Positions 26,468 to 59,345 of a stretch of DNA of 64,000 nt are shown here, in pieces. Under the pieces are notes generated by a model. The model was not told where the DNA came from and ran no database searches. It was given only the letters and a program-made list of their open reading frames with translations. The DNA is taken from positions 124,001 to 188,000 of the forward strand of contig QPMI01000165.1 in the NCBI GenBank assembly GCA_004431415.1, in the 5' to 3' direction. The translations under genes and the position numbers were made by a program. This DNA is from Cyanophora paradoxa CCMP329 (Eukaryota > Plantae > Glaucophyta). Within the stretch, counting starts at the first letter, position 1, and each line of letters opens with the position of its first letter.

Positions 26468-26851
26468 GTTGCCGCTGGGGTCTTCGGCCGTCACGGCCCG
26501 CCTCGTCTGGCCCATCCCCGCGGGGGCCTGAAGCAGCACGCGGCCACCAGTGGGGGTCCGGAACTGCAGCGTGTCAGGGGCACCGGTGAGCGACCCTGAA
26601 GCTGTCTCGAAGGTGAGGGAGCCCGTCTGTTCAACGAGCCCCGGCGTCGTGTAGTGGCGGAAGCGGAGGCCGGACCCTGCGGCCGGCTGCCCCCCGCTGG
26701 CCGAGGCGCCCGTGCCCTCGCTGACGTCGTCCGCCTGGTTCAGCGTGATGATGCGGTCCGCCGTGGAGACGGCCTCGGCCGTCACCGTCGTGAGGTTCAC
26801 GATCGTGGCGTTGGACATGTTCACGGTGTCCAACGGGCCGCCAATCGTGAT
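26468..26851 (-). pseudogene. Internal fragment of a second fibre-protein paralog
   Basis: Nearly identical, with several substitutions, to ~50995-51377 (ITIGGPLDTVNMSNATIV...AEDPSGN). Confidence 0.9.
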
Positions 26852-27169
26852 AACTCCAGATTCACATGAACCGGGTCCGCTCCATACTCAACAACCCTGA
26901 AACCATGGAGGAGGGGTTGCGCCACGCGCTCGAGATGCACAGAGAGACGTACGCGATCATTCTTCAGATTACCAGGCTGGAGCAGCGGCTGTACGACGAC
27001 ACCGATGTCCGACATCTCGCTGCGGGTCGCCGTACATCTCGAAAGGCTGCAGAAGGCTACACGCGGCGAAACCGGTTCAAGTTCACAGCGAGCTCCAACA
27101 GTTCCGACCTGGCCCCCCCGGGCTCCCCCGGGCCCCCCCGGGCTCCCCCGGCCCCCCCGGGCTCCCCCT

Positions 27170-27635
27170 AAACCTCTCTGGCGGCACTGCAAGGGATACT
27201 CCAGTCCATCGGGCACGGTCATCCCAGCTGGCCAAGAACCGCCTGCCCTCCGGGTCCGTCTCTGAAGTGGGTGGGGGCGCCGGGCGATTTCGAGTGATCC
27301 CCAACTGCTGCAGCTGCACTTCAAGACGCCCCCACTCATCAAATCGCTCCAGCTGCTCCCGGACGACGTGCCAGAGCCTTATCACCTCTCGGTCAGACAT
27401 GGTCGGAAACAGGTAGGAAGATGGAGGATCTTTTATCTGTGCAAGATCTGCCCCTTGAAGCCACTCCAAAAGTATTGCAGGTGCGAGCTCAGGGAGAACG
27501 CCGCTGTCTGCTGTCAACCTGGCACGGATACTATCCTGGGTGCGGAGGAGATACAGGCCGGCCCAGAACAACGGACCTGAGCTTAACTCAATTGCAAGGA
27601 CGCGCGTGATGGCCCGGTCAAGGATGCCAGAGGTG
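27170..27635 (-). pseudogene. Hypothetical protein family 'EWLQGADL', paralog A (fragment)
   Basis: LLEWLQGADLAQIKDPPSSYLFPTMSDREVIRL; similar to pieces at 30809-31030 and 29730-29925. Confidence 0.55.
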
Positions 27636-28329
27636 GTTGATCTCTGCAGCAGCTCGGATTCGGAAAACGACGGGCAGCTGCCCCGCGGGCCCCCGGCGGC
27701 AGCGCCGAAGCCGCGGGCGGCGCCGGCCGCCGCAGCCGCAGCCGCGGCCCGCCCCGCAAGCGCACCGCCGCCCCCTCGCCCAAGTTCCCTGCAGCCCGCC
27801 AAGGCGGCAAAAAGTCGGGCGCCGCCTCCTCGTCGTCGGCGCCGCAGCAGCAGCAGCAGGCGCCAGGCGCCGCCTCCTCGTCGGTCCGCCCGCCCGCCGG
27901 CCCGCCCGCCGGCCGCGCGCTCACCAGGACGACCCTCGCAGCAGCGTGTCGTCCTCCAAATCCGCCCCTCGTTGCGCCGCTGCGACATCAGGACGCGCGA
28001 TCGGGCCGAAGAGGCGCCCCACGGCGACGCGCGCAAACAGCGCGCAGTCAGCGCCTTCAACCGAATGAAGACCGGCGCCCGGTGCACCGCCGAGGTGGCG
28101 GACACCACGTGCTCCCGTGAGCGCGCGCAACTGCGATGGCGGCCACGAGGAGGAGGGTGGCGGTGCCGGCGACGGCGGCAGCCACGGGAAAGCGCGGCAA
28201 AGCCACCGGCGGCGGTGCCCCTGCCCCCGGGCCAAGCGCTAGCGGGGCGGTGTCCGTCATGATCTCGTCTGTGTATGTGCCCGGAAAAATTGTCTTGGTC
28301 CGCTCTTGTCGCCCACCCTGCGTGCGCCC

Positions 28330-28662
28330 ATGTCATCCGCCAAGACCATCTTCCCCAAACTCGTCGGTGAGTTCGCCGGCACCTTCGTGTTCCTCCTTGC
28401 GATCATGAACATGACCAGCGGCAAGTCCTCGCAGCAGGGCGGCATCAACAACCTTCTGATCGCCCTCGCCCTCCTCGGCGCCATCCTCGCGTTCAACGGC
28501 ATCTGCGACGCGCACTTCAACCCCGCGGTCACCATCATGAAGATGGCCGAGCAGCTCGCTTCCGGCAGGGCCGGCGGGGTCGCCGTCGGCGCCGGCCTCG
28601 GCATGATCCTGGCCCAGGCCCTCGGCGCCCTCTCGGCCCTCGGGGTCTTTAAGGCGCTCTGA
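28330..28662 (+). CDS. Half-size MIP/aquaporin (single NPA repeat)
   Basis: LVGEFAGTFVFLLAI...DAHFNPAVT...MILAQALGALSA; 110 aa with own ATG and TGA. Confidence 0.8.
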   Translation: MSSAKTIFPKLVGEFAGTFVFLLAIMNMTSGKSSQQGGINNLLIALALLGAILAFNGICDAHFNPAVTIMKMAEQLASGRAGGVAVGAGLGMILAQALGALSALGVFKAL

Positions 28663-29735
28663 GGGCCGCCCTCCCCCCATCGCCTCGGTCGACGAGGACG
28701 AGGCCTGGCGCGATCGCTTCAGCCTCGCGCTGGGGCCCGAGTCGCCCGTCCAGATCCGCTCGACGGGCGACGGCACCTTCGCCGCCTACTACTGCCGCGA
28801 CGCGGAAGAGGAGCAGCCCGTGGTCTCAGAGGAACCCTTCTTCGCCGCCGTCATGGGGATCGCCGGCGGCGACGAGGCGGCCGGCCTGGCCTCCTCCATC
28901 TTCTCCGACAACGACGAGGTCCAGGCGTCGCTGGCCGCCCTGTGTATGCTGGGGCGGCCCTTCCGCCGCTGGCTCGCCCTCATGTACCCGCGCAAGGTGC
29001 ATGCGATCGTGTGCGTATGTACATACACATATACATACCCGAGCAGCTGGCGGGCTCCGACGCGGAGGAGGCGATCGCGGCCCGCAATACGCGGGCCGCG
29101 GCCATCCTGAAGGCCCCCGAGATCCTCGCCGCGCTCGTCGACCCCATGGTCTGTATATATACCACCCGTCCAGGGTGCCCGCCGCCCGCCCTCACCCGAC
29201 GCAGGTCCTGGAGGCCGCGGGGGCGGTCCAGGACCCCGCGTGGGTCCGGCACCTCGCCCTCAAAGTGGGGCTCAACGGCTGGCGGTTCGCGGTCAAGCCC
29301 CCCTGCCTGCCCGACGAGACCCCCTGCGACGACTGGCCCGTCGAGACGCGCTGCTTCTTCAAGCTCTCCTTCTTCAACCACAGCTGCGGTCCCTCCATCG
29401 GCAACCGCGGCTCGCTCGACCCGATCGTCAAGGCCCACGAGGGCGTTGCCAACGGCGACCGCCTCGCCGGCGAGGAGGCGACCCTCTCCGTGGCCCCGGC
29501 GATGATGATCCGGACGATGCTGGGGGAGCCCTGCCGCTGCCACGTCTGCGCCGACGCGGGGGCACGCAAGGAGCACGTCTTCCTGGACATGATGATCTTT
29601 ACGGAGGTCGGGCAGCAGATGGGGGTGCTGGCCGAGGACGAGATCGTCAGTGCGGCCAACCTCCGCAAGGTCATGGCCCTCATGAACCAGATGGACTCGG
29701 CCGCCATCTTGCAGGCCGCGGGGGCCCTTTTGCCA
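28663..29735 (+). pseudogene. SET-domain (SMYD-like) methyltransferase fragment with two introns (28997-29046, 29149-29204)
   Basis: LSFFNHSCGP, GEEATLS and post-SET CRCHVC; two phase-0 GT-AG introns restore the frame. Confidence 0.7.
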
Positions 29736-29925
29736 CCCCGTTCTTGTCGCTGAAGTGATCTCCCGGGAAGATGGATGTATCTGCATATGGGAAAAAGTCA
29801 ACGAAAGAACTGGACGGCCAGCCTCGAGCTTGAGGGTCCTCCATCATACTTTTGATTTGCCGGCAAAGGGCGATCACCTCCCGGTCGGGCATGGTCTTGA
29901 AGTATGTCGTCGAAACATCGTCCGG
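29730..29925 (-). pseudogene. 'EWLQGADL' family paralog B, downstream piece
   Basis: PDDVSTTYFKTMPDREVIALCRQIK aligns with KDPPSSYLFPTMSDREVIRLWHVVR of paralog A. Confidence 0.6.
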
Positions 29926-30677
29926 ATACCGAGGGGCGAGGTGCACGCCCTGCGGATCGAGGTGGGGGCGCTGCGGGCCGAGCTGGACCTCTTGCACGCC
30001 GCCGCCCTGCTGGCCCCCAGCGGCAAGGAGGAGGAGGAGGAGGAGGAGGAGGAGGTGGGCACGGAGAGGGACGCCTCGGAGGAGGAGGAGGAGGGGGAGG
30101 AGGAGGGCGCTCCGTCCGGTACCGGTGCCATCTCTCGCCTCTTCACGGAGATCTTCCGCCGCACCGCGGCAAACTGAATAGGCAATTGCAACATGTGCGC
30201 GCCCTCCCCCTGTGATTTTTATCGGCCTTTCCAGAAACAGGCACAACGACGGCACGATGGTCGCGGCCATCAACACGGCCTTCAACCTCTCCAACCCCTC
30301 TTCCCAGCTGAGGACGCCCCTCGGGCTCCCCGTCTTCGACAGCACGTTCATGCGCTCGCCCTACTTCTCCTACTCGGCCACCAATGGCGGGCCGCAGGCG
30401 GTTGCATTCGGCGCCCCGCCCCACATCCAGCAGGCCATCCTCCAGCAGGTGGCGGCGGCCGCTGCCCCCACCCAGGCCCCGCCGGCCCCGCAGCAGCAGC
30501 AGCAGCAGCAGCAGGCGGAGTTTCAGCAGCAGTCTTCGTCCGAGTACGGCGCCCACGCGTGCACGTGCGGTGGCGGCAGGCAGGCCGGCGGCCGGACTGC
30601 CGTGGCCCTCGCCCAGTACCATCACGGGCCTGCTGTACCCCCACCCCCTCCACGTCCGTCCGGCACCCCGCGCCCAC

Positions 30678-30810
30678 ATGTCATCATCATCGCGGGCACC
30701 GGCGCCGGCGCCCGACTGCTCCGTCTGCTGCCTGGCAACCAACCTCTCCAGCCGCAAGCTCTGTCGATGTGTATACTGCAAGTACATCGCCTGCCGCGCC
30801 TGCAACGAGA
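30678..30810 (+). pseudogene. NCLDV RING-finger protein, N-terminal piece
   Basis: MSSSSRAPAPAPDCSVCCLATNLSSRKLCRCVYCKYIACRACNE. Confidence 0.7.
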
Positions 30811-31030
30811 TCTGCGTCAGATCTGCACCCTGCAGCCATTCGATCAAGACGGCACAGCCCCTTTTCAGGCGCAGGTCACGAGGGGTTATCTGATCCCGGC
30901 TGCTTTCTCGAAGGTATGAGTTCATGGTGAACAGGATCTCTCGCGCCGGTGCCCCTTCAAAGCGGGGGGAAGCCGTCAACAAGAGTGCGGCCCTGCATAT
31001 CTGCTTCAACCGTGTCCCTTGCGAATCTTG
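30809..31030 (-). pseudogene. 'EWLQGADL' family paralog B, upstream piece
   Basis: ...RGCAVLIEWLQGADLTQI ends at the junction with the RING piece. Confidence 0.6.
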
Positions 31031-32099
31031 CCAGCGCGGCGAGGGCTCCGGGCTCCAGGACGGCAGTCGACGCGAGGAGGCGCTGCACCACCCCCCTCAC
31101 GTTGCTGCTGCTGGTCGTGCTTTTCACCTTGCCCTCCCACATCACCGCCCCCCCCTGCCCCTGCCGCTGCTGCTGCCTGTTCACAAGGGGCGCCACCGCA
31201 GCCGCGGGGTCGATCCACCTCTGCTCGAGCTGCTCCAGGTCGCTGGGCCTCAGCTGGTTCGAGAGGGTAGGGTAGAGGTAGTCCACGATGAGCCGATCGG
31301 CTCCCGGCAGCGCCTGCGAAGGGGCACCCTGTGCGGCCCCCATTCGTGTATTTCGATGATCTCTCACGATACAAAAAAGCTCAGGGGAGCGCCGTCATTT
31401 CCGGCGTGGAGTCGGTCGTTGGCGCCGGCGGCTTCTGCGTAGTACTGTTATCCAGACGGCGGGCCATCGCGACAACGATGTCCCGGACCACCTGGAGGAT
31501 GGAGTTACCCTGGACTCGGCCCGTCAGGGCAAGCCCCTCGGAGATCGCGGCAACCGCAGAGATAGCGACCAGGAAGCCGGTCTTGATGTTCTCCACGTAG
31601 GGGTCCCCCGTCGTGCAGGGGGCGGCGGCGGCGGCGGCGGCGGCCCGGGCCACGGCGGGTGCGGTGATGTTCATGCGGGGCCCGGGTGCGCACGGTGCCG
31701 GCGCGGGCGGCAGCGAGGCATCCGAGGCGAGGAAGTAGCCACCGCCCAGGGCCCTGGAGCGGATCAGGCCGAAGGGCGCATGCTGCTCGATCTCCCACCG
31801 CATCTCGAGGCGAGGGGGGTAGGCGATCTCGGCCCAGCGGGTGCGGTAGGGGCCGAACGCCGAGTACGCCAGGCACACCTGGGGGTTGCCCCGCGGCGTC
31901 AGGACGAAGAAGGAGCTGGAGGATGCGGTCGGCGGCCTCCACGCGACCATGTGCACGTCGGCCGCGCCGGGGGGGCGCAGGGGTACTGCTCACGGTGCGA
32001 GCGGGCGGCGCTCCACCCTTGGAAGAGCGCGGCCCTGTACGTGCCGTCGGATGCCTTGAATGCCTGAAACCCCGGGATCACTGTGCGCAGGGGGCCGCG

Positions 32100-32945: not shown

Positions 32946-32965
32946 GCATCTCACCAACTTTGCAC

Positions 32966-33808: not shown

Positions 33809-33809
33809 C

Positions 33810-34314: not shown

Positions 34315-34352
34315 GAGCGGGTCGAAGAGGCCCTGCGCCTACCCGGCCGCCG

Positions 34353-34904: not shown

Positions 34905-34957
34905 GGAGAGCTCGTCCACCGCCGGCCGCGATTTGTCGTGGCCGTGTGCGAGCGAAG

Positions 34958-35182: not shown

Positions 35183-36076
35183 CGGGCGACGTCATCGTCG
35201 TCGGCGGCGGCTACGGCCAAGGGTGGTGGCGCCGGCGGCTTCCTGGATCGCATCCTGTCGTGGTGCGCCCCCTGGCGGCGGAAGGCCCGCTGCGGCGGCG
35301 CCCCAGGGGTGCCCCCGGCACCGGCCGCACCGGCACCGTACTTCGCGCAGGATGTCGCCTCCCGCACCGGCAGGATCGAGACGAAGCGGGCCAGCGCCAC
35401 CGGGGCGGTTTCGGGGTTGAATCCCGTGTTATCGGCGAGCGCCGCCCCCGTTGCGCCCCTGTGCAGCTTGACGTCGTGCGGATCTCCTCGTAGACCGACG
35501 TCATCATGGTGGAAGGGAAGGCCGCGCAGGTGGCGGCGCCGGCCGCGGGGCGCTGCCCCGCGCAGGTGCAGAACAGGTCCACCGTCCAGAGCCCGTAGTC
35601 GTCCCGCTGGCACTCGCCCGGGGTTCACGCGGCAGCTAGAGCGGCGCCCCGTGTTGCACGTGGTGTGATGTTATTCATTCGCGGGCGGCAGCCTGAGGGG
35701 CATGCGCGGGAGGCCGGCGCACGTCGCCATGCGGCCGCCCTCTTCTCCGGCCAGGCAGACTACGACCACTGGGGCGGCGGGGTATGACGGCGGGGGGGCC
35801 GCGCCGGCGGCGGAGGCGGCCCAGCGGATCTCGGAGACGAACAGGGCCGCGGCGGCGCGGAGGGCGCGGGGGAGCACCGCCGGCTCGTTAAGGAGGATGA
35901 GGACGACGGGGGGCGCTCGAAGCAGCTGGCCGGAGCCGGCCGCGAGGGCGGCGGCGTACTCGCGCAGGACCGCCTCGGGGCTGGCGCTCCGGTCGCGATC
36001 GCCGGTACCGCAGCAGCGCACCAGGAGGACGCGGTCCGCGAGCTCGAAGGCCAGGGCCAGAGCCCGGCCCGGCAGC

Positions 36077-36425
36077 CGACGAACTTCATGATCATCACCC
36101 TCCTTCATATAAGGGCAGATTCAGCGGGGCTTGTGAGAACACGAATCTAAGGTGATCCAGTTTTCGAGAGAGGGGCAGTGCGACGAGAGCGGCAGACGGA
36201 CACCGCCCTTTTTGACGGAGCATGACACGGACTGAAACTGGACTACACTAGATTCATGTTCTCACAAGCGGAGGCAGTTCAGCCTATATAGAACCGAGGT
36301 GCATCGAGCAACATCGCTCGCGACCCGACCCCCCCTCTCGACGAACTTCATGATCATCACCCTCCTTCATATAAGGGCAGATTCAGCGGGGCTTGTGAGA
36401 ACACGAATCTAAGGTGATCCAGTTT
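36077..36425. repeat. Non-coding repeat block 1: 262-bp period with internal imperfect inverted repeat
   Basis: 36077-36163 repeated at 36339-36425; core GCTTGTGAGAAC at 36129(+), 36269(-), 36391(+). Confidence 0.9.
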
Positions 36426-36716
36426 CGGACGGGCTCTGCTTGGACTTGTCGTATTTGCGGCGTTTCTTCTGGGGCGTCGCGGCCAGCGGGTCTTCACCGT
36501 CCCGCTGGGGGGCGTCGTGGGGGTGGTCGCAGTAGTGGCGGACGACGACGGGCCCGGCGGGCCCCCGCCGGCTGTGGCCGGACTTGAGGGTGGCAAGCTT
36601 CATGCGCCCGAAGTGGCGGAGGGTGCCCAGGATGCGAACGGGGTCGACGTTGTCCTGGCGGTAGATATGGCCCTTTTTGCCGTAGTAGGCGCCGAGGCTC
36701 GTGCGCAGGAAGACGG

Positions 36717-36915
36717 CGAGGCGGGGGGCAACTCCGGCCTCGGCGGCGCCGGGGGGTTCACCTCGGCGGTCCTGGGGGTGACCCCGGGGCAGGTCCTGCG
36801 CATCATCACGGGCGGGGCAGGGGCCTGGGGCACGGGTGGCTACGGTGGCGGCGGCTGCGGTAACAGCACCTGCGTCGCCGGCGGCGGGCGGTCCGCCGTG
36901 CGCCTCGACGGCGGC
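36717..36915 (+). pseudogene. Glycine-rich domain fragment of a virion/surface protein
   Basis: GGAGGFTSAVLGVTPGQVLRIITGGAG...GGGRSAVR. Confidence 0.5.
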
Positions 36916-37204
36916 TACGGGCAGGGCGGCGACCCGAACTGGGGTGGCGACAAGACGCTCATCGTCAAGTGGTCCTGCCCGGACAACTGCTGTCCCAAGG
37001 AGATGAAGGACATGCCTCCCAAGGACTACGTCGAGGGGTACACGACGCGGACGACCACGAGGCGGAGGCCCTGCCCGGCGGGGGGAGGGTCGACGTGGTG
37101 GAGCGCAACCTCCTGCAGGGCAGCGCCGCACCCCTGCACCTGCGGGAGTTGGCCATCCGCCCGTGCGTGGGTGGACATGCGCCCTCTTGGCAGCCTGCCG
37201 CCCT

Positions 37205-37822
37205 CCTCCGCTTGTGAGAACATGAATCTAGTGTAGTCCAGTTTCAGTCCGTGTCATGCTCCGTCAAAAAGGGCGGTGTCCGTCTGCCGCTCTCGTCGCA
37301 CTGCCCCTCTCTCGAAAACTGGATCACCTTAGATTCGTGTTCTCACAAGCCCCGCTGAATCTGCCCTTATATGAAGGAGGGTGGTGAAGGTCGTCGAGAG
37401 GGCGGGGTCGGCCGCGGGTCGCGAGCGATGTTGCTCGATGCACCTCGGTTCTATATAGGCTGAACTGCCTCCGCTTGTGAGAACATGAATCTAGTGTAGT
37501 CCAATCTGAGACAGGGGCCCTAGTGTGTTTCCATATTTGCGGGGGGGGGGGGCAGGGACGCCCCTAGCCTGGCCTGCGCCGCCTGTGCATGTTCGCATGC
37601 TGCTGCTTCTATATAGGCTGAACTGCCTCCGCTTGTGAGAGCATGATTCTAGTGTGATCCAGCCTGAGATGCTAAGCCCCCCCTCTCCAGTATGCACCCC
37701 TGGGTGGCGGGGGTAGGGTGTGACCTCAGCTCTGATGCCTGCCCTGCCCCGCCTGTGCATGTTCGCATGCTGCTGCTTCTATATAGGCTGAACTGCCTCC
37801 GCTTGTGAGAACATGATTCTAA
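37205..37822. repeat. Non-coding repeat block 2: inverted copy of block 1 plus two further units with unique spacers
   Basis: 37205-37503 is a permuted reverse complement of block 1; core at 37210(+), 37350(-), 37473, 37631, 37801(+), the last three preceded by CTATATAGGCTGAACTGCCTCC. Confidence 0.9.
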
Positions 37823-37959
37823 TGCACTCCACTGCACGCCGCCCGCCCCCCCCCCACCGCCCTCCACACCGCCCCACTCAGCCCCACCCAGCCCGCGGCC
37901 CTCCCCCCTACCCTCCCCTACCCCTCCCCCGGGCCCCCTCCCCCCCCTACCCGCCCAAC

Positions 37960-38673
37960 CGCTATGAACCACTTTCACAGCTGGGAACCGGTTGTGCTTT
38001 CCGAAGGCATCTGCAGTGGTACAGGGACGCTACCCACTACCAGGCCTTTCGCCGGGGCCTGCGGGGGATTGGAACCCCGTACTGGTTCATGGACTACCGG
38101 CACGATCACAAAGGGGAGCGGTACGATCACGGGGGCTTTCGGCTCCAGGTCCCCAACATGGCCACCGGAGTCAAAAAAGAAGACGGCATGGGGGGGTACG
38201 TCCCGGGCCAGTCCAAGACCATGGGCATCCGGTACGCGCAGATCAGCGCGAACTGGTGGCGGCTTGGGGCGATCATCGGCAACATCCTCTACAAGGGAGG
38301 GCAGATGACCGACTTCTCGCAGTCCGACAGGGACGAGCTCCGGTTCGCGCTCGACGAAATCTGGCCGTGCGGAGACTACGATTTCCACAAATCGGTCTGC
38401 AAAACGCCCCGGTCGGCCGAGCAGGTGAAGACGGCCATGCGGAGGGTGCTCGACCGCATCGGGACCATCGTGGACCGGTGCAACAAGGGCTCGCACGCCA
38501 TGTGCCGCCTCGACACGCTCATCAGGGCGATCAAGCTCGCCGAGATGGAGACCCTCGGCGACGGCTTGGTGGTCCAGTGGCCGGATCTGGCCGTGCGGTG
38601 GTCAAAGGACCCATACGCCGCACCACGCACCCCGTGGGGGGCTCCCCCGCGCGGGGGCCGGCCGGCCGGCTAG
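37960..38673 (+). CDS. Hypothetical protein (5' truncated or uncertain)
   Basis: About 235 aa of complex, globular-looking sequence. Confidence 0.5.
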   Translation, partial: RYEPLSQLGTGCAFRRHLQWYRDATHYQAFRRGLRGIGTPYWFMDYRHDHKGERYDHGGFRLQVPNMATGVKKEDGMGGYVPGQSKTMGIRYAQISANWWRLGAIIGNILYKGGQMTDFSQSDRDELRFALDEIWPCGDYDFHKSVCKTPRSAEQVKTAMRRVLDRIGTIVDRCNKGSHAMCRLDTLIRAIKLAEMETLGDGLVVQWPDLAVRWSKDPYAAPRTPWGAPPRGGRPAG

Positions 38674-39170: not shown

Positions 39171-39194
39171 CTCTGTGTATTTCCCACAAATTTC

Positions 39195-40191: not shown

Positions 40192-40880
40192 CTAGTGGAC
40201 GGACCGACCGGCGTCCGTTTTCCCGGTACCCCCCTCGGAGGCGGCGTCCGTCCTGCGCGCGCGCTTGGCTGGCGCCGCCGCCGCGGCCTTCGTCTTCTTC
40301 CGTGCCGCGCGCTTCTTCTTCGGCCGGTCGCCCAGTATCATCGAGAGCACGTGCGCGCCCTGCAGGAACGCGTCGGCCGCATCGTCCTTCTTCCTCAGCG
40401 CGCTGAAGAAGGTGAGCGCCGGCCCGGAGACCATCCGCGAGCAGTGCTCGACCGAGAGGCTCTTGTTCCTCTGGTACGGCGTGTTCCACCCGTCGAACGG
40501 CACGGCGGCGGCGGCGTCGGACCCCGGCGGCGCCTCGGCGGCGGCGGACCCGGGCCCCCGGTAGACCGTGAGCTTGTTGCGCGGGCAGACGAAGCGCACC
40601 TCCGCGCCGCGCCGCCTGCACACGAAGTACGTCTGGATCGCGTGGGCGATTGCATGCATCTTCTTGCACGCTATCGTCTGACTCTCGATGGCAACGCAGT
40701 CGGGCAGGAGCATGAAGGGGCGAGAGTCGAAGGCGCGCACGAGGGCGGCACAGGCTTCCTCGGCGGTGCGCGCCCCGAGATCGATTACGCCCCACGCGTG
40801 GACCGCCACGGGCGGGGTTGGATCCTCCTCCGCTTCCGCCCCCGCCTCTTCCTCCCCCCCATCCTGCTCCTCCTCCTCGG
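40192..40880 (-). pseudogene. Holliday junction resolvase, poxvirus A22/RuvC-like; N-terminal catalytic strand missing
   Basis: WGVIDL, VAIESQ, IQTYF, PRNKL, YQRNKSLSV, KKDDAADAFLQG. Confidence 0.8.
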
Positions 40881-41423: not shown

Positions 41424-41813
41424 ATGGCATCCTCCCGTCACCACCACGGCCACCACCACCACCACCACGGCGGCGGCCGCGGCCCTCGGCGCGTCGCCCC
41501 CGGTGCCGGCGCTCACGTGCACTGGCACCCGCGCTACCCGCCCTCCGCGCGGGCCGAGTCGCTCTGGGTCTCGGAGCACGTCGACGAGCTGCTGGACGTG
41601 TGGGACGCGCTCGAGGAGTTCCGCTCCTCCTGGGGGCTGCTCGACGCCTGCTCCTTCCCGCAGTTCTGCTCGTTCGTCTGCAGGCACTCGCTCTCCTCCG
41701 GGCCGCACCTGTGCAAGGGGCCCCGCTCCTGGCCGGGCTCGGCCCCCGCCGTTGTTGTCGCCGCCGAGGGCGGCGCCTCGGAGGAGGAACGCCCCTCGTC
41801 GCCTCCGCCGTGA
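41424..41813 (+). CDS. Small conserved algal-virus-type hypothetical protein with His tract
   Basis: WVSEHVDELLDVWDALEEF...LDACSFPQFCSFV. Confidence 0.5.
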   Translation: MASSRHHHGHHHHHHGGGRGPRRVAPGAGAHVHWHPRYPPSARAESLWVSEHVDELLDVWDALEEFRSSWGLLDACSFPQFCSFVCRHSLSSGPHLCKGPRSWPGSAPAVVVAAEGGASEEERPSSPPP

Positions 41814-42199
41814 CGATCATGCCGCTGCCGCTTCCTGTTCTCGTCGTCGCCGGCGGGCGCCAACCTGCTGGCAGCAGCCCTCTTCTTCGGGACTGCACCG
41901 GGTACGTGCGCTGGCACCTGCCCCGTGACCCGCGCGGTGCGCAGGTCGGCCCAGAACGCGCGGAGGGCGGGGAGGGCGCGGTCGCGGAACCAGGCGCGGT
42001 CGCGCGGGATCTCGAGGCAGTCGTAGACGGCGGGGATGCTCCGTGGTCGGACGGTCTGGCACGTGTAGGGGGTACACGTTGCCCGGCCCGGCCCGGCCCC
42101 GGCGCGTTGCCTTGGGCCCCGCCCAACTCTTTGCCTGTCACCAGGCAGATATTCTTCAGCTCATGTCTTCCGCGACGTCCTCTTTCCCCACGCCACCCC

Positions 42200-42795: not shown

Positions 42796-43235
42796 CCCGC
42801 GGCCGGTCCTGCCAGACGATTATCCCGGCGGAAATTTCGATCCCACTGGGAAACGCACGATGTCGTCCTGGCTCCTGGGCGGGGCCGCCCGCCAGGCGCC
42901 GGCCGTCCGGCAGCAGCAGCAGCAGCAGCAGCAGCAGCCCCCGCCGCCTCCGCCGCCTTCGCGGCCCCCCAAGAAGGGCACGATCCCGTGGCTCACCCAC
43001 AAGATGGAGCGGAGGGCCCTGCGGGAGATCTACCAGGCCGCGGGGAAGCGGGGCTTCCTGAAGGAGGACCTCCTCCTCCCGAGCCTCGGCATCTCCGCAG
43101 GCCGATTCGCGCTCGACTACCTGTATTACTCGCACGTGAGGAACGCCGAGCGGCGCGGCCGGGCGGCGGCAGCGGCAGCCCGGGCGTTGCCGCCGCCGGG
43201 CGCGGCCGGACCGTCGCCCGTTTTTTGGCGAGTTC

Positions 43236-43877
43236 ATGGACGCCTGGAGCGAGCTCGCCACCCCCTCGGACCGCTCCCTCGGCCGCCTCATCGGCCACGG
43301 CTCGCAGGCTGACCGCATCACGTGGGCGCAGAGCGACCAGTACCTCTACATCCCGCTCCACTGGTGGTTCAGCCGCTTCCGCGCCCAGGCCCTGCCCATC
43401 GTCGCGCTCCCGCTGCACACGGTGAAGATCACCGTGCACTTCAAGAAGCTCGACGAGGTCGCCGTCGCCTCCGGCGGCGCCACCCTCTCGTCGGCGCCCG
43501 CCTCGGGCGCCATCGAGTCGTGCGTCATTGGGTCGAACCAGGTCTACCTCGACCAGATGGAGCGCACCCTCTTCGCCAACGCCCGCGAGTCGGAGTACCT
43601 GATCGACCTCGTCCAGCATGCCGGCACCGACCAGGTCGCGGCGGGCTCGACCTCCCTGAAGATCCCGATCCGCTTCAACCTCCCCGTCAAGGAGCTCATC
43701 TTCTTCTTCCGGAAGAACACCAGCAAGGCCGCCAAGGACTACTTCAACTACAACGGCGACTACACCGACTTCGGCGACTGGTTCAAGGACTGCACGCTGC
43801 AGCTCAACAACAACAACCGTTTCGCGCCCCGCGACCCGAACTACTTCCGCTTCGTGCAGCCCCTGGAGCACCACACG
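43236..43877 (+). pseudogene. MCP: Major capsid protein (double jelly-roll), internal fragment
   Basis: LYIPLHWWF...ALPIVALPLHTVKI...YLDQMERTLFA...EYLIDLVQ...FNLPVKELIF...LQLNNNNRF...YFRFVQPLEHHT; both termini missing. Confidence 0.93.
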
Positions 43878-44830
43878 GTCGCCGCGGCCGAGGGGGCGCT
43901 CGCCGGCTCTGGCGGTGCCCAGGCGCGCCGCGTCTTCGTGGCGCTCCAGCACGCCTCCAACGTGACAGGGGCCTTCCAGGACATCGGCGGTATCGCGGAG
44001 GCGCTCAAGCAGAGCGCCGTCCTCCGCGGCCGCTACGTGCTCTTCGTGGACTGCGCCGCCTCCGCCCCGTACGCCCCGCTCGTCATGGCGGCGCCCGAGT
44101 TCGGACCGCGGTCCTTGAGGCCCCCGGGCGAGCTCCGGAGCCTCGCCCTCCCGGACGGGATCCACGTTCACGCCGCCGCCTTCTCACCCCACAAGCTCGT
44201 GGGCGGCCAGGAGGCCCCCGGTGTGCTCGTCGCGCACGCCAGCCTCTTCGTCGAGGACGTGCCCTACCAGCCGGGCGGCGGCACCGTCTGGGCCGCGACC
44301 GGCGGCCGCATCGGCTACCACGACGACCCCGAGGCCCGCGAGGCCGGCGGGACGCCCTCGATCCTGGGCATCATCCGCGCGGGGTTCGCCATCGAGATAC
44401 AGAAGGCGTTTCTGCACTACATCGGCCTCGCCGACCAGGCCCTCTGCGCCGTGCTGGACGAGTTTGAATCTTCGGGGGCGACGAGGGCGTGCGGGATCAG
44501 CCGCATCCACCTCCCGGCGGGGGCGGCGGCGGCCCAGCGCCCCCCTCACCGCAGCCCGATCCTGTCCTTCTGGCTCAGGGCCGGCGCCCGCTGCCACGTC
44601 CGCCCCCAGCTCCTCACGGTGCTCCTCAACGACCTCTTCGGCATCCAGGCCCGCGCGGGGGTCTCGTGCGCCGCGCTCCTGGCGCAGTGGGTCTCCGGCG
44701 GCGAGGCCTGGGCCGAGGAGGCCTACCGCGCCATCGAGGACCCCAATGCCGGCTGCCCCAGCTGGTACGGCTGGACCCGCGTGACCCTGCACTTCACCAT
44801 GCGCCCGGCGGTCGTGGGGTACATCCTCGT
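43878..44830 (+). pseudogene. Aminotransferase class V (cysteine desulfurase-like, PLP) internal fragment
   Basis: ASNVTG, VDCAASAPY, FSPHKLVGG (PLP lysine), PGGGTV, REAGGTP, LLNDLFGIQARAGVSCA, GWTRV. Confidence 0.9.
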
Positions 44831-45190
44831 GATCCTGGATGTGGGGCCACACGCGCTGCTGTCGGTTCTTGACCTCGAGCACCTCGCCGGTCCCCTCAAT
44901 GATCCCGTCCAGGCGCCCGCACAGGAGCAGCGTGGGGCGGCCCGGCCCCGGTAGCGGCAGCTCACGGTGGTGGAGGGCGATGTTCGAGCCGCGGATGACC
45001 CGGCGGCCGGCGTGCCGCTCGAAGGCCTCGACCGAGGCCGACTCGAGCGCCATGCCGGCCTCGCGCGCCTTCGCCACCTGCTCCGGCACCAGGTCGCGCC
45101 GGGGCCGCGCCCGCCGGCTGGTGGGGTTGCGCGCGATGGCCGCGTCGTAGCTCTCGGGCGACGCCGCCGGCCGGCAGCCCAAGTCGTTCA
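44820..45190 (-). pseudogene. YqaJ/lambda-type exonuclease internal fragment
   Basis: GMALES...LCGRLDGI...VLEVKNRQQRVWPHIQDHEDV; truncated before the QxQxY motif. Confidence 0.75.
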
Positions 45191-49536: not shown

Positions 49537-52414
49537 CTATATACTGCCGGGTTGGGTGATGTTGCCGAAATCTGTCGCCCCGGTCTCGCCCGTGGCGCCC
49601 CCCACGAAGAGGTTGCGGCTGATGTAGGCACCGCCGCGGCAGACCAGGGCTCCAGTGGGTGCTGTCGCCCCCTGCGTTGTGTTTGTGATCGTCACCACGC
49701 CCCCGATTGCGGCGGTCCCGTTCGTCAGGGTCATCGTTCCGTTCGTCGAGCTGTAGTTGCCCGTCACCGTCACAGAACCCCCCAGCGTTGTAGCCCCCGT
49801 CACGCCCAAGGTGCCCCCCACCGAGGTGTTGTTGGACAGCGTCGCGACCCCCGTCACCCCGAGCGTACCCCCAACGGAGGCATTGGCCAGCGTCGTGTTC
49901 CCCGTCACCCCGAGCGTCCCCCCCACCGAGGCATTGGCCAGCGTCGTGTTCCCCGTCACCCCAAGCGTGCCTCCTACCGAGGCGTTCCCCAGCGTGGTCG
50001 CCCCTGTCACCCCAAGCGTACCCTTCTTGTCATCTTCGGCGCGGGAACGCTTGGAAGAGGACCTGTGCGCGCGCACGGGCCGGCGATCGGAACCGGACGG
50101 GGGCGCGGGCCGCGCGCGCTGCGAGCTGCTGTGTAGGTGCACTTACATGCCTGGAGCCGAGCTGGAGCCGCGCTGGAGGCGAGATGACGTGGCACCAACG
50201 ACGTACCCCCCCTCAATGACGTACCCCGTCACGCGGTCGCATCCGATGTGTGGGCCCGGGCGCACCGAACGCTTACGATACGCGCGCGACGGCTCTGAAG
50301 AAGCTCTTCTGCGCGCGCGGCAGGCCCCTGGGCCGCGCTGGAGGCGAGATGACGTGGCACCAACGACGTACCCCCCCTCAATGACGTACCCCGTCACGCG
50401 GTCGCATCCGATGTGTGGGCCCGGGCGCACGTGGTTGAGCCTGTGACCCCAAGTGTACCCCCAACGGAGGTGCCGGCCAGCGTCGTGGCCCCCGTCACCC
50501 CAAGCGTGCCCCCCACAGAGGCGTTCCCCAGCGTGGTTGCCCCGGTCACGCCAAGGGTACCCCCCAACGTGGTTGCCCCTGTGACCCCGAGTGTTCCCCC
50601 CACCGATGTGCCGGCCAGCGTCGTGGCCCCCGTCACCCCAAGCGTGCCCCCCACAGAGGTGTTCGCCAGGGTGGTCGCCCCGGTCACGCCAAGGGTACCC
50701 CCCAGCGTGGTGGCCCCCGACACGTCCAGGGTGCCCCCCACCGAGGCGCTGCCCCCTGTCAGGGTCAGGTCACCCTCCTGCGACGTGTAGTCGCCAGCCA
50801 CTGTCAGGGGGCCGCCCAGCGTGGTGGCGCCCGACACGTCCAGGGTGCCCCCCACCGAGGCGCTGCCCCCCGTCAGGGTCAGGTCACCCACCTGCGACGT
50901 GTAGTCGCCGGCCACTGTCAGAGCTCCTCCCAGCGTGGTGGCCCCGGACACGTCCAGGGTGGCCCCCACTGAGACAGCCCCCACAACGGCAACGTTGCCG
51001 CTGGGGTCTTCGGCCGTCACGGCCCGCCTCGTCTGGCCCATCCCCGCGGGGGCCTGAAGCAGCACGCGGCCACCAGTGGGGGTCCGGAACTGCAGCGTGT
51101 CAGGGGCGCCGATGACCGACCCTGAAGCTGTCTCAAAGGTGAGTGAGCCCGTCTGTTCAACGAGCCCCGGTGTCGCGTAGTGGCGGAAGCGGAGGCCGGA
51201 CCCTGCGGCCGGCTGCCCCCCGCTGGCCGAGGCGCCCGTGTCCTCGCTGACGTCGTCCGCCTGGTTCAGCGTGATGATGCGGTCCGCCGTGGAGACGGCC
51301 TCGGCCGTCACCGTGGTGAGGTTCACGATCGTGGCGTTGGACATGTTCACGGTGTCCAACGGGCCGCCAATCGTGATGGTCGTTGGGATCGCGTTGTTTG
51401 CGCCCACGTGCCCGATGGTGATTTCCCCCACGTCGGGCGCGCTACCAATGCTGATCGAGTTCGCCCCTGGCGGTGCGTCCAGCGACGCAGAGAAGAGGCC
51501 GCTGGTTGTCAGCAGGGACCCCGTGACCGAGACGGTGTTGTTGGGGCCGCTGGCGACGATAGACGAGGCATGGAGATCCCCAAGGCTATCGAGTGTACCC
51601 GTCACACTGAGTGTGTTCAGCGTTGTGTTTCCCGACACCCCCAGGGTGCCCCCCACCGAGGTGTGCCCCAGTGAGGTCGCCCCCATCACGCTCAGGGTTC
51701 CCCCTACCGAGGCGTTCCCCAGCGTGGTCGCCCCCGTCACACCGAGCGTACCCCCAACGGAGGTGTTTGTCAGCGTCGTAGCCCCTGCCACCCCAAGCGT
51801 ACCCCCAACGGAGGTGTTGGCCAGCGTCGTGGTCCCTGTGACCCCAAGCGTGCTCAGCGTCGTGTTCCCCGTCACCCCCAGGGCGCCCCCAACCGAGGCG
51901 TTTGCAGCCAGCGTGGTAGCACCCGTCACCCCAAGCGTACCTCCAACGGAGGTGTTGGTCAGGGTCGTACCACCCGTCACCCCGAGTGTACCCCCCACCG
52001 AGGTGTTGGCCAGTGTCGTGGCCCCCGTGACCCCAAGCGTGCTTAGCGTCGTGTTCCCTGTCACGCCCAGGGTGCCCCCGACCGAGGTGTTCGCCAGGGC
52101 GGTCGCCCCGGTCACGCCCAAGGTACCATCCACCGAGGTGTTGGCCAGAGTCGTGGCCCCTGTAACCCCAAGCGTGCTCAGCGAGGTCCCCCCCGTGACC
52201 CCGAGGGTGCCTCCCACCCTGACATTGGCTAGCGTCGTATCACCTGCCACGCCCAGGGTACCCCCAACGGAGGCATTTGCAAGCGTCGTCGCCCCCGTAA
52301 CCCCGAGCGTACCTCCAACCGAGGCGCTGGCAAGCGTGGTATTCCCTGTCACGCCCAGGGTACCCCCGACAGAGGCGCTGGCCAGCGTTGTGGCCCCCGT
52401 GACCCCGAGGGTGC
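49537..52414 (-). pseudogene. Virion fibre-like protein with VGGTLGVTGATTL repeats; 5' truncated and interrupted at 50023-50429
   Basis: Dozens of 11-17 aa beta-repeats; ADRIITLN and TGALVCRGGAYISRNLFVGG motifs typical of phage/NCLDV fibres. Confidence 0.8.
50167..50430. repeat. Exact 99-bp direct repeat (50167-50265, 50332-50430) with 66-bp spacer
   Basis: GCCGCGCTGGAGGCGAGATG...GGGCCCGGGCGCAC occurs twice. Confidence 0.95.
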
Positions 52415-52419
52415 TCAGG

Positions 52420-54549: not shown

Positions 54550-54755
54550 GGGGGCGGGCTCCCAGCGGGGGTACAGTCCCCGCACAAGTCCCGGAGCTGC
54601 CCGGGCGGGCAGCCCGTCCCGGGGCACGTAGCGGGCGGCGGGCTCCCCGCGGGGACACAGTCTCCGCACGAGTTCTTGACCTGCTTCGGGGGGCAGCCCG
54701 TGGCCGGGCACACCCCCTGGCGATCGGAGCAGACGGGGGTCGCCGTCCCGCAGCC
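54550..54755 (-). pseudogene. Second Cys-rich repeat family, short fragment
   Basis: VCPATGCPPKQVKNSCGDC...CPGTGCPPGQLRDLCGDC. Confidence 0.65.
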
Positions 54756-54782
54756 GACCACCTGGTGCGGCTTCCCCGCGGG

Positions 54783-55083
54783 GCACGCCAGCTTCCGCCC
54801 CACGGGCGACATCACCGGGACCCCCACCCTGGTGCAGAACCACTTCAACGGCCGGTGGGGCGGCGAGGAGCGCCGAACATACGCGAGCCTCGGCATCACC
54901 AGCGGCGCGGCCCCCTGGGCCCTCTACTTCGTCATGGACGCGGCCAGCTTCAAGATCTACCGGGTGGACACCTCGCCCCCGCAGCTCGTCTCCACGTTCA
55001 ACAACCGCATGCCCTCCACGCCCATTGTGCGCTTCGAGTCCGGGCCCTACGCTTGCACGCGGGTGCTGTTCGCGGTACCCTAG
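54783..55083 (+). pseudogene. Galectin-like domain, C-terminal fragment (paralog of 58132-58743)
   Basis: HASFRP...LVQNHFNGRWGGEERR...FNNR; near-identical 3' end to the intact copy. Confidence 0.7.
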
Positions 55084-55779
55084 CAGGTCACACAGAGGCC
55101 AGAAGGTCGAAGGTGAACGCCACGGCAAGGTAGTACTGTTGTTCTGTTCCCCTTGGTCAGCCTGGCGCACCACCCGGCCTGCTCCGTCCCGCAGATGGCG
55201 TCCCCGTGGTGCACGAGCTGGTAGATCGGGACCTCCAAGTCGATCTCGGGCGGCATGATAGTGGGAGGATGCGCTCACAGGGCTGCTAGACACGGTATAT
55301 CCTGTAGTATAATATCAACAACACTACGGACGTGGGGTATTCCTACTCGCGATCGCGCCCGTGCCGTCCTGCTGCCTTGTGTCCCGCATGACGCGCAGGA
55401 CCGTATCGAAGAGGTAGGTGGGCCGACCCCAGCGCGTGTCGACGATCACGACAAAGAACCCCTCGCGGCGGAACTGGGGGATCATGCGCGCGTCCGGGGC
55501 TGCCACCGTGGTCGCCTGGAACCCCAGGCTGCCCCCTGTGTCGCAGTCGGTTGGCCCTTGGACCCGTGCCTCGTCTTCAACACGCGCACACACAAGTACA
55601 GGGTCCGGGGCACGTGCCCTGAGTGCGGGCGCCGCATCTCCTCGTTCTGCTCCCCCGACCACTGGCGCGACGTCCCCTTCGAGCGTCTGCAGGTCGGGTT
55701 GCCGCCGCCGCCGGCCGCCGCCACCGCTACCCCCCGCCGCCCCCGCCGCCGGGGGCCGGCCGAGGCAGCAGCTGGAGGA

Positions 55780-56280
55780 TCCGGTCCACCTTCTTGATCG
55801 CGGAGAGGGACCGGCCCGAGACGCCCGGGGCGACGTTGCGCGGCGGCGGCGAGGGGGGGCGCGGCGCCGCCTGCTGCTGCTGCTCGCCGCCGCCCTGCTG
55901 CTCCCCCCCGTCGCCCTGCTTCTTCTTCTTTGGCGCCGGCGGTGGGCCCGCCCCGGGAAAGAGGAGCGAGTAGAGGCCGCCGTCCATCAGGCGCGGCCGC
56001 GACTTGAACTCCGAGCACTTCCCCTCCCGCCGCCCCTCGGTCGTGTCGCACCGGCAGTAGCACAGCTGACGGGCCCCGCTGACGCCGATGACGAAGTACA
56101 CGTTGTTGTTGTTGTGCTCCGGGGGCTGCTTTGTGAGGTTCTCGCACCAGCGGCTCGTGGAGCGCGCCGTGTACGAGCGCTTCTTGCCGTTGCCGTCGTT
56201 CGCCCACGCCGCCGTGATCTCGGGTCGCCCGGGGAAGGCGTTGACGATGAAGTTGCGGATCGACTGGAAGAGGCACTCTG
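55780..56280 (-). pseudogene. PrimPol/AEP primase C-terminal Zn-ribbon (UL52-like) fragment of NCLDV type
   Basis: STSRWCENL...EHNNNNVYFVI...QLCYCRCDTTEGRREGKCSEF...LYSLLFP. Confidence 0.72.
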
Positions 56281-56399
56281 ACGAGCTACAGCATACACCA
56301 TGGCGGTGGAGGGGAGAGGTGCGGAGGAGGAGGAGGAGGATGAGGAGGAGGAGGAGGAGGAGGAGGAGGAGTCTTTGGACCCCCCTGCCGCCGCGGCCG

Positions 56400-56672
56400 G
56401 CACCCTGCGCGGCCTGCGGCATCCACTGGGTGGGGTCGTCCCACGCACGCTGCCTTGCCTGTCGCCTCGGCGTGGCGGCACCCGCACGGCCCGGCGGCGA
56501 CAGGCATGTGAGCGACGTCCACGTGGTCGCCAGCATCCTCGCCGGCAGCCCCTGGCGCCCCGTCTCCCCCGACCTCGTCGCCCCCCCGCGCCAGGGGTGC
56601 GCCATCGGCGCCGGGTCCGTCTACCTCCCCGACTTCACCTTCTCCCTCCCAGACATCGTCGTCGAAGCCGAT
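56400..56672 (+). pseudogene. PD-(D/E)XK-like endonuclease fragment
   Basis: CAAC..CLAC Zn pair followed by YLPDFTFSLPDIVVEAD, cut at a junction. Confidence 0.45.
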
Positions 56673-56674
56673 GT

Positions 56675-57682
56675 GCACCACCCGCAGAGGTCCAGCTGCT
56701 GGCCAGGCGGGCAGCCCGTCTCCGGGCACACCGCGAGCTCCTGGGCGGTCCACTCAACGCAGACCCCGCAGCCAATGTCAAGCTTCGGGGCCTCCTTGGG
56801 GCACCCATTGGAGCACTCGGGCTTCTCCTGGCCCTTCCACCAACACTCGTGGCACGCGTTGTTCTTGTCCTGTCCCGGGGGGCACTGGGTCTCGCGGCAC
56901 AGTGCCCCAGGGGGCACGCGGAACTCGGACGAGCACTCGCCGCACTCGTTCTTGCGCTGGTAGGGGGGGCAGCCGGTGTTGGGACAGACGAGGTTCGGGG
57001 ACCCGACCATGCGATCGTCTATGCAGACACCGGGCCCGCACTGGGGGGCGGCAGCCTGGCCGGGGGCACACCCGTCGTCACAGACGGGCTTCTCGCGGCC
57101 CTTGGTCCAGCACTCGCGACACGAGTTGTTCTTGTCCTGCCCGGGCGGACACCCGGTCGTGGGGCAGATGGCAGGAGCACGGGACGGGTCGAGCGTACAG
57201 TCACCACAGCGGTCGAGGCGGCCCTCGGGGAAGCCGCGGGCGATGCAGGCGGGGTCGGTGCAGGTGCTGTTGTCGCCGCCGCAGGCCCCGCAGCGGTCCC
57301 GCAGCTGGCCGGCGGGGCATCCGGCGTCGGTGCACGACATGCCATTGCCGCCGCAGACACCACAGCGGTCTCGCATCATCCCGGCGGGGCAGCCCGTCGA
57401 GGTGCAGGTAGAGCCGTCGCCGCCGCAGACGCCGCAGAAGTCGCGGGCCTGGCCGGCAGGGCAGCGGGGCAGCCGCGGGGCCGCCCCCGGGTCGTAACCA
57501 AGTGCTCGTTCAAGCTCGTCGGCCGCTGGGCCTGCTCCCGCCGGACCCCGTGAGGCTGCATAGGTGGCCCCAAGGGCCGCGAGGGCCACAACGACGGCGA
57601 GGGTGGCGCCGGCAGCTTTGAGGCTCCCGCCGCCGCCGCCGCCGCCGGGCACCCCAGGCGGTTGAGGCGCAGGCACAGACAT
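56675..57682 (-). pseudogene. Membrane-anchored Cys-rich repeat protein, 3' truncated
   Basis: ATG, N-terminal TM (ATLAVVVALAALGATY), D.CGVCGGDGSTC and CP.TGCPPGQDKNN repeats. Confidence 0.75.
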
Positions 57683-57864
57683 ATGTTGTCGCTGGGTTCA
57701 CTACAGGAACCGCAAAGATAAATAAAAGGCGAGCAGGAGACTATTTTACTTGGGCACCGCCGGCGCCGCCGCTGCTGCTGAGAATCCGGAAGCTGCCACC
57801 GGAGCGCCTCAGGGGGCCCCAGAAGAGGAGGTTGCCGTCGCCGGTGCGGCTGGTGTCCGAGAAG

Positions 57865-58084
57865 GGCCGTTGGATGTAATGCCATGTCGCTCCGGGGGCT
57901 GCCCCGTGCATATTGTCGCGTACGACGTGCGGGATACGGTGGGGAGGGGCGCAAGGGCGCGCCGGACCCATCCACGGCCCTGCCGGACGAGGGATTCGAC
58001 GTATCCCAGCTCCTGGCGGGCGACGTCGTACCGAAGGCCGTCTACGATGACGAGGATCACGCCAAATCGTCCTTTGCGGGGCAT
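57865..58084 (-). pseudogene. Alkaline phosphatase superfamily (nucleotide pyrophosphatase-like), N-terminal piece
   Basis: VILVIVDGLRYD...LPTVSRTSYATICTGQPPERHGITSN. Confidence 0.8.
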
Positions 58085-58131
58085 CGGTGTTTTTACACTG
58101 AGCGATTATTTTTAGTGAAAGGGTGAGATCG

Positions 58132-58743
58132 ATGGCGCTCCCCTCCGAAGGCCCCATCTCCTTCGGCGCGATCCGGAGCGCCCTGAACGGCCCGCCGGTG
58201 GGGAGGCCCTCCCCCATGTCGCTCTACTGGGGGGCCACGAACGGCGTGCCAACCTCGGGCCCCCTCAGCTTCTCGCACTTCCGCGGCAGGGCCCCGCTGC
58301 GGTCCGTGGGGGGCAGTGCCGCCGTGGTCGACCCCGCCCTGAGCGTCTACGGGATGCGCTTCCTCTTGCAGTGCTCGGACGGGACCGCGGGGGGCAGCCT
58401 CAACTTCTTCGGCCACGAGAGCAACTTCGACCCCCTCGTCTACCACGGCAGCTTCCGCCCTTTCGGAAACGTCCAGAGCCCCAACATCGTGCAGAACACA
58501 TTCAGCGGGGGGTGGGCCTGGGAGGAGCGCCGCACCTACGGGAGCTTCGGCATCACCAACACCACCGCGCCCTGGGCCCTCTACTTCGTCATGGACGCGG
58601 CCAGCTTCAAGATCTACCGGGCGGACACCTCGCCCCCCCAGCTCGTCTACACGTTCAACAATCGCTTTCCGTCGACGACGCCCATCCGGCGCTTCGAGGC
58701 GTCGCCCTACACGTGCACCCGGGTGCTGTTCGCGGTGCCCTAG
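58132..58743 (+). CDS. Virion-anchor peptide plus galectin-like carbohydrate-recognition domain (intact ORF)
   Basis: N-terminal LPSEGPISFGAIR...VPTSGPLSFSHFRG (viral structural-protein leader); YHGSFRP...IVQN...GWAWEERR...FNNR. Confidence 0.68.
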   Translation: MALPSEGPISFGAIRSALNGPPVGRPSPMSLYWGATNGVPTSGPLSFSHFRGRAPLRSVGGSAAVVDPALSVYGMRFLLQCSDGTAGGSLNFFGHESNFDPLVYHGSFRPFGNVQSPNIVQNTFSGGWAWEERRTYGSFGITNTTAPWALYFVMDAASFKIYRADTSPPQLVYTFNNRFPSTTPIRRFEASPYTCTRVLFAVP

Positions 58744-58949
58744 GTCGCGGCGCGATATGCTGCCGGCACAGGCGCGCGGTGCGTGCCCTAGATGACGGAG
58801 AACACCACGGCCAGATGGTACTCGAGCGGGGGAAGCGGCGGCTCAGACGACGAGGGCCGAATCGCCCGCGGGGCGTCTAGAACTTTCTCACAGCCCGTCT
58901 TCGCGGGGCGACGTCTTCTCACAGCATGGCGGCCGCCACCGGCGCCCCG

Positions 58950-59157
58950 CTGCCCTCCGAAGGCCCCATCTCCTTCGGCGCGATCCGGAGCGCCCTGAAC
59001 GGCCCGCCGGCGGGGACGCCCTCACCCATGTCGCTCTACTGGGGGGCCACGAACGGCATGCCAACCTCGGGCCCCCTCAGCTTCTCGCACTTCCGCGGCA
59101 GGGCCCCGCTGCGGTCCGAGGGGGTCGGCGTCGTGGTCAGCCCCGGCCTGAGCTGTC
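58950..59157 (+). pseudogene. N-terminal fragment of another anchor/galectin paralog
   Basis: Near-identical to 58138-58305. Confidence 0.8.
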
Positions 59158-59345
59158 AGGGTACCCCCCAGCGTGGTGGCCCCCGACACGTCCAGGGTGC
59201 CCCCCACCGAGGCGCTGCCCCCCGTCAGGGTCAGGTCACCCTCCTGCGACGTGTAGTCGCCGGCCACTGCCAGGGGGCCGCCCAGCGTGGTGGCCCCTGA
59301 CACGTCCAGGGTGGCCCCCACTGAGACAGCCCCCACAACGGCGAC
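59158..59345 (-). pseudogene. Fibre paralog fragment continuing 26468-26851
   Basis: VAVVGAVSVGATLDVSGATTL... homologous to ~50993 downward. Confidence 0.85.

Follow-up and report, generated by a model that had tools for sequence, protein, structure and literature searches.

Giant endogenous viral elements (GEVEs) have been described in Cyanophora paradoxa (Sarre et al, PMC12344493) and Acanthamoeba (Blais et al, PMC12210455). The C. paradoxa elements are methylated, viral genes of this species being in general reported as methylated and silent, and the available main text of that paper describes no internal scrambling, although its figure and supplements may show the present locus. For Acanthamoeba, the accessible parts of the paper report chimeric insertions and a gradual degradation that breaks viral DNA into pieces, and the available sections of the Euglena and Amoebidium GEVE papers (PMC12455990, PMC11244446) describe erosion. 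The C. paradoxa assembly paper (PMC6704402) gives the genome as likely haploid, and the words "virus" and "viral" are absent from the portion of its text at hand. Here we analysed one window, a stretch of 64,000 nucleotides of C. paradoxa CCMP329 (assembly GCA_004431415.1, contig QPMI01000165.1, positions 124,001 to 188,000 of the forward strand), most of which looks like a GEVE resembling the product of chromothripsis. Two pieces of a viral fibre gene in this element, A and B, lie 33 kb apart and are best read as the two sides of one clean double-strand break.

Pieces A and B were compared with a longer copy of the fibre gene in the same window (paralog 1, hereafter the reference) by self-BLASTN of the window and by base-by-base diagonals, each piece being aligned singly rather than after concatenation. 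A (26468–26851) matched 50994–51377 over 384 nt with 9 mismatches and no gaps (97.7% identity), and B (59153–59345) matched 50801–50993 over 193 nt with 12 mismatches and no gaps (93.8%). Both matches end at 50993|50994, between the codons for Asn and Val, and the bases immediately beyond A and B differ from the reference at the cut, leaving neither gap nor overlap. The statement of the first-pass annotation that no codon is missing between the fragments was thus borne out. Its bounds for A and its end for B were also correct, but B reaches 59153/59154 and not 59158. It had further predicted a gap-free alignment to 50690–51377; there is indeed no gap at the join, but the alignment is gap-free only against 50801–51377, because the reference contains two 114-nt repeat units. 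Alignment to the longer interval would leave one repeat unit unpaired, away from the join. A and B are both minus-strand, with the 3' half placed upstream of the 5' half, and 0 nt of sequence is shared by the two sides of the A|B break. When a 384-nt and a 193-nt piece were placed at random on a 1,985-nt reference, exact abutment occurred in 962 of 1,000,000 placements, corresponding to a chance of ~0.001 for a single pair and ~0.005 allowing for the five pairs examined. Each piece has a second broken end as well, hence paralog 2 was cut more than once.

Divergence from the reference was similar across the cut, with 9/384 differences in A and 2/65 in the non-repeat part of B. Synonymous changes accounted for 11 of 20 changed codons, where 29–32% would be expected (p 0.013–0.028), and this enrichment indicates that the fibre copies diverged as working genes. 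The matching divergence and the synonymous excess support the proposal of the first-pass annotation that A and B both derive from one second viral fibre paralog, in which a single cut was made here and neither side was lost. Templated copying of the 50–51 kb gene followed by later mutation is disfavoured by the same excess, a rejection tempered by the CpG-type transitions that make up 5 of 11 differences. Coincidental abutment of pieces from different paralogs, or from two related viruses that had co-integrated, is also very unlikely. The fibre family is repetitive and overall divergence is higher in B (12/193) than in A (9/384), as such an origin would allow, but near the cut B is about as close to the reference as A, exact abutment has a p of ~0.001–0.005, and a second genome at 97% identity would interrupt the long single-copy contigs described below. 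The coordinates of A, B and the other features are given in Table 1.

Table 1. Features of the window, with positions counted from its first base.
Feature	Position	Strand	Description
Piece A	26468–26851	-	Internal part of fibre paralog 2 lying 5' of the cut; broken at either end
Piece B	59153/59154–59345	-	Fibre paralog 2, 3' side of A's cut
Fibre paralog 1, main piece (in-window reference)	50429–52415	-	Open frame without its own 5' and 3' ends; Gly/Thr-rich repeats
Fibre-gene 3' end piece	49537–50023	-	Register agrees with that of the main piece, from which ~400 nt of other DNA separates it
Giant-virus gene-piece mosaic (endogenous viral element)	22765–64000		From Pfam scans, frame segmentation and read contigs; continues past the window end
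3' piece of an unrelated gene at A's cut end	26271–26467	-	G+C at third codon positions 0.86 on minus strand, 0.62 on plus strand
Alkaline-phosphatase-family C-terminal piece	59346–59560	+	Head-to-head with B; Pfam Metalloenzyme/Phosphodiest; residues 157–227 of a 269-aa relative
Alkaline-phosphatase-family N-terminal piece	57866–58085	-	Pfam Phosphodiest 1–66; residues 2–68 of the same 269-aa relative
Alpha gene (whole, 203 aa), then N-terminal piece of beta paralog	58132–59153	+	Beta cut at 59153, tail-to-tail with B
Alpha-like paralog, C-terminal piece	54784–55083	+	99 nt missing between it and the beta N-terminal piece
Capsid/aminotransferase fusion	43224–44830	+	Internal piece of NCLDV major capsid gene (to ~43879) in frame with internal piece of aminotransferase class V gene
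Host duplicate of 14297–17245	19830–22764		5' parts of a Rieske/PaO oxygenase gene and an F-box gene; truncated at the start of the mosaic

Short-read sequencing runs, probably all of one strain, were used to examine copy number and the joins. Depth in runs X1, X4 and X18 was 70, 100 and 108 for single-copy sequence, 126–177, 197–211 and 228–233 for stretches shared by A and the reference, and 69, 86 and 88 for A-specific sequence, respectively; an A-specific contig (26552–26680) was at single-copy depth in 3/3 DNA runs. Because shared stretches are at about twofold and A-specific ones at onefold depth, there is no room for an intact, identical third fibre copy. Single-copy contigs of 1.3–4.7 kb run across many joins, and therefore no second whole viral genome is present. 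One contig of 3,764 nt (22735–26497), found in 3/3 DNA runs, crosses both the host–virus join and the cut end of A. An artefact of assembly or library preparation through chimeric reads is scarcely plausible, because the depth fits two copies and contigs cross the junctions at single-copy depth. Homopolymer indel errors do occur in the window, and 50024–50428 is unbridged among the contigs listed, but 20 of the 24 runs listed contain 93–95% of the sampled words of 55000–62000, albeit probably from the one strain.

Within the window the mosaic that holds A and B is 41 kb long. Pfam scans were run on 50, 88 and 130 reading frames, the majority of which gave no match. A hallmark of nucleocytoplasmic large DNA viruses (NCLDV) was present as a partial capsid gene (Capsid_NCLDV, E 4e-18; Capsid_N, E 3e-12), and Pfam together with tblastn using full-length relatives resolved the fusion protein into Capsid_N 96–202, Capsid_NCLDV 1–115 and Aminotran_5. 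Partial SprT and DRMBL domains and Cys-rich repeat genes were also found. About two dozen joins in 22765–64000 are marked by homology, and 0–3 nt of sequence are shared at those for which a reference exists for both partners. Eleven joins, a small sample, were read by eye: five were same-direction, four tail-to-tail and two head-to-head, and no common motif or repeat was seen at them. The frame was open in 10/10 pieces checked, a set biased by the fact that pieces were recognised partly by their openness. In-window duplicates were identical at 99/99 and 87/87 positions, and the observed-to-expected ratio of CpG was 1.00.

These joins bear on a programmed, reversible rearrangement, either shufflon-like fibre switching or ciliate-like gene scrambling, which we consider highly improbable. 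The cut does lie at a codon boundary, and invertase systems classically target fibre genes. However, the 11 inspected joins have no motif or repeat in common, A|B lacks a pointer overlap, breaks also affect the capsid, phosphatase and aminotransferase genes, and Pfam scans of the window frames detected no recombinase family.

The host flank, bases 1–22764, is eukaryotic DNA rich in GC and introns that carries Rieske/PaO and F-box genes, and three gene models matching window translations are labelled as one Cyanophora paradoxa contig. At 22764|5, the sole host–virus join seen, an intron-bearing copy of a host gene meets the mosaic. Between the two host copies (14297–17245 and 19830–22764), 26 of 29 substitutions fall in the first 475 nt and 3 in the other 2.5 kb, and the read depth of the duplicate corresponds to ~3–4 copies. 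This duplication, ending at the viral boundary, may be tied to the insertion event. In the host genes of 1–19829 no joins of the types found in the mosaic were seen, and exon order is kept. Run X22 yielded a spliced host contig (22300–22677) and no long piece of the viral part, which carries no weight on expression. Among the runs listed as containing the sampled words of 55000–62000, none was an RNA run. The window holds nothing that would date the breaks relative to integration, which leaves room for a defective genome, scrambled during viral replication and then captured whole. Such an origin on the viral side is distinctly unlikely. Defective genomes made by template switching are expected to delete and duplicate; they would not preserve the two sides of a break with base precision, and the bulk of the mosaic is at single-copy depth.

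The mosaic probably arose by chromothripsis-like shattering and end joining of a GEVE, in which the stretch was likely fragmented to below a kilobase and the fragments rejoined in random order by the cell's break-repair machinery. One viral genome with tandem fibre paralogs would have entered the nucleus during a failed or latent infection and would have been broken into pieces of ~0.1–2 kb, likely in one episode. Host end joining would then have re-ligated the pieces in random order and orientation, to each other and to a chromosomal break at 22764, with ends trimmed little or not at all at some breaks and part of the pieces lost or now beyond the window. The outcome would be a dead, silenced element. 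As the outer flanks of A and B belong to different genes, three or more breaks with mixed partners are needed, and multi-break shuffling is indicated rather than insertion of one circle. Had a single circle been opened in the fibre gene, or one reciprocal exchange taken place, the outer flanks would form one sequence. Both were rejected, the left flank of A being without the middle of the phosphatase: its score was equalled in 322 and 764 of 1000 shuffles, compared with 0/1000 for true phosphatase pieces. A further candidate for the phosphatase middle near 56400 (E 0.31) was dropped and looks zinc-finger/endonuclease-like. We infer a one-step timing of the shattering, a single episode being favoured by the many breaks, the little decay and the unscrambled adjacent host genes.

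The same breaks could have accumulated if an intact insertion had been rearranged stepwise after integration by separate inversions, translocations and deletions, which is the model published for the Acanthamoeba insertions in the accessible parts of PMC12210455. Every such event also retains both sides of a break, and a DDE transposase gene lies at 62690–63742. We nevertheless regard this history as unlikely: about two dozen homology-marked joins in 41 kb are accompanied by almost no point decay and by an intact host exon order, the sequences flanking A and B are no reciprocal pair, and self-BLASTN of the window revealed no transposon copies at the joins. In an improbable variant of the shattering, a shred-and-capture defence of the alga, a nuclease would cut the incoming giant-virus genome to blunt pieces that end joining would store at a silenced locus. 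The lengths of A and B (384 and 192–193 nt) are those that a nucleosome-sized ladder would give, although the ladder rests on these two pieces and other piece sizes show no clear fit. If such a defence did operate, the virus would be inactivated at once and the locus could act as a sequence memory.

Several observations weigh against one-step shattering and end joining as the origin of the mosaic. Serial events likewise keep both ends of a break. Only one of the five same-gene pairs is exact; one is short by 4 nt (modulo a repeat), two leave ~100–260 nt unaccounted for, and the fifth, of Cys-rich pieces, shows no clear fit. The contigs over 22764|5, 26467|8 and 26851|2 have 30 letters on their short side, one below the bridging rule of the search tool, and we read 30 letters as the most that a k-mer graph permits beside a repeat; 59345|59346 is crossed with 33 letters by an X1 contig (59313–60847), and bridging there was seen in at least 1 of 4 runs. 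Rough segmentation by reading frame yielded 95 coding segments, of which 45 are plus and 50 minus (median length 284 nt), but real gene ends and breaks are mixed in it and our own picks served as its training set. About 7% of the mosaic sits in 31-mers occurring twice within the window, so that it is not strictly single-copy. There is no close viral relative as a reference, the nearest capsid being 34% identical, and the in-window paralogs are consequently the sole precise references; viral_contigs contained 0 relatives of two window proteins.

Among the incomplete pairs, the phosphatase N- and C-terminal pieces lack ~88 middle codons within the window, and the alpha-like N- and C-terminal pieces lack 99 nt and are perhaps from different paralogs. 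Capsid ends, aminotransferase ends and the phosphatase middle were not found within the window by tblastn with relatives; these remainders may lie beyond base 64000 or be lost. As to copy number, depth is single-copy over long contigs, yet short duplicates exist, and losses are indistinguishable from pieces outside the window. Hence, of the balanced cut-and-shuffle that the first-pass annotation had proposed, retention at the A|B cut and a shuffled region stand. Judged from sequence comparison, clean retention of both sides is proven at one break, a second break likely being another case, and with one pair of five exact the balanced character of the whole shuffle is only partly shown. Other searches of viral references returned one 1.7-kb contig and one C-terminal stretch and otherwise nothing usable; a TBLASTX self-search of the window was drowned in GC noise, and atlas searches gave just low-complexity or sub-0.8 leads.

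The near-exact pair consists of the reference, ending at 50429, and the 3' end piece, starting at 50023, between which 4 nt are missing modulo a 138-nt higher-order repeat, a gap that is ambiguous by multiples of 138 and by paralog. Such a fit has a chance of a few percent. It is not certain that the 3' end piece belongs to paralog 1, because the genome contains another, similar 3' end at a different place. For 49606–49762, read contigs show this single-copy paralog, ~90% alike and outside the window; further viral pieces therefore lie beyond the window. Between the two paralog 1 pieces, 50162–50265 and 50328–50430 form a near-identical 100-nt duplicate, unbridged in the contigs listed, that may be either a native viral repeat or a templated insertion. 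The label "fibre" is given by resemblance: the main piece has a weak PHROG tail-fibre match (E 6e-5), and a Peptidase_S74 chaperone domain was found in 8 of 20 relatives scanned, including P0126, which has a non-repeat domain in common with the window fibre gene. In the public gene models P0003 and P0014, fibre sequence is spliced to unrelated pieces.

Elsewhere in the mosaic, the public model P0001 (42860–44954, plus strand) is a chimera of an unrelated piece, the capsid piece and the aminotransferase piece. Inverted array pieces at 36077–36425 and 37205–37831 have a period of ~262 nt and two related units of 75–90 nt, each beginning with a TATA-like box; they are possibly viral terminal repeats or small-RNA genes, and Rfam gave no match at 35900–38000. 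The minus-strand frame at 62690–63742 encodes an intact DDE_3 (IS630/Tc1-like) transposase, and 28333–28662 a half-length aquaporin (Pfam MIP). Pieces at 40195–40800, 44838–45150, 41793–42039 and 56370–56680 we take by eye to be a RuvC-like resolvase, two exonuclease-like pieces and a zinc-finger endonuclease-like piece.

On how giant viruses enter host chromosomes and are inactivated, the literature, in the parts available, favours a slow decay that sets in after integration. The insertion described here is finely scrambled and hardly decayed, and two of its break ends fit to the base, which points to an abrupt route, one testable by tallying paired ends over the whole contig and by strain comparison. 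The gene models of the region are chimeras; the capsid–aminotransferase fusion and the spliced fibre models are already in a public proteome, and could be misread as novel fusions or host genes. Chromothripsis is recognised by clustered breakpoints, random orientation, blunt or microhomology joins, kept-or-lost copy number and a one-step origin. Dense clustering of breakpoints, random orientation of joins and blunt or short-microhomology joins were all found here.

We found no report of chromothripsis-like scrambling of a GEVE in the literature searched, in which subscription journals were thinly covered. Viral insertions in C. paradoxa are already known, and the fine-scale scrambling did not appear in that literature. 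Shufflon and invertase switching (Mu gin, P1 cin, R64) shares with this locus alternative fibre-gene pieces that lie apart in the DNA, but no recombination sites or recombinase were found here and non-fibre genes are equally broken. Scrambled genes of the ciliate type differ in their pointer repeats, there being none, and 0 nt of overlap, at A|B. In the available accounts, chromothripsis, defined as in PMC13390643 and with non-homologous end joining as its main joiner (PMC11224358), and biolistic transgene arrays (10.1101/379644) share sub-kilobase pieces, mixed orientation, blunt or 1–3 nt joins and losses with the mosaic. The best structural model is provided by lambda DNA shot into rice (10.1101/379644), whose shattered arrays, according to the accessible text, have a mean piece of 410 bp, 25% of their joins blunt, and uniform orientations. 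The substrate here differs in being a natural giant-virus genome in a wild-type alga, and the timing is deduced from the sequence. With the GEVEs of C. paradoxa (PMC12344493) and Acanthamoeba (PMC12210455), as far as the available text describes them, the locus shares Nucleocytoviricota genes clustered in a host chromosome and a sharp switch from intron-rich host DNA to intron-free viral DNA. Their published decay consists of gene loss, partial duplication, chimerism and transposon invasion over time, whereas the genes in this window are cut internally every few hundred bases, show scarcely any point decay and preserve at least one break to the base.

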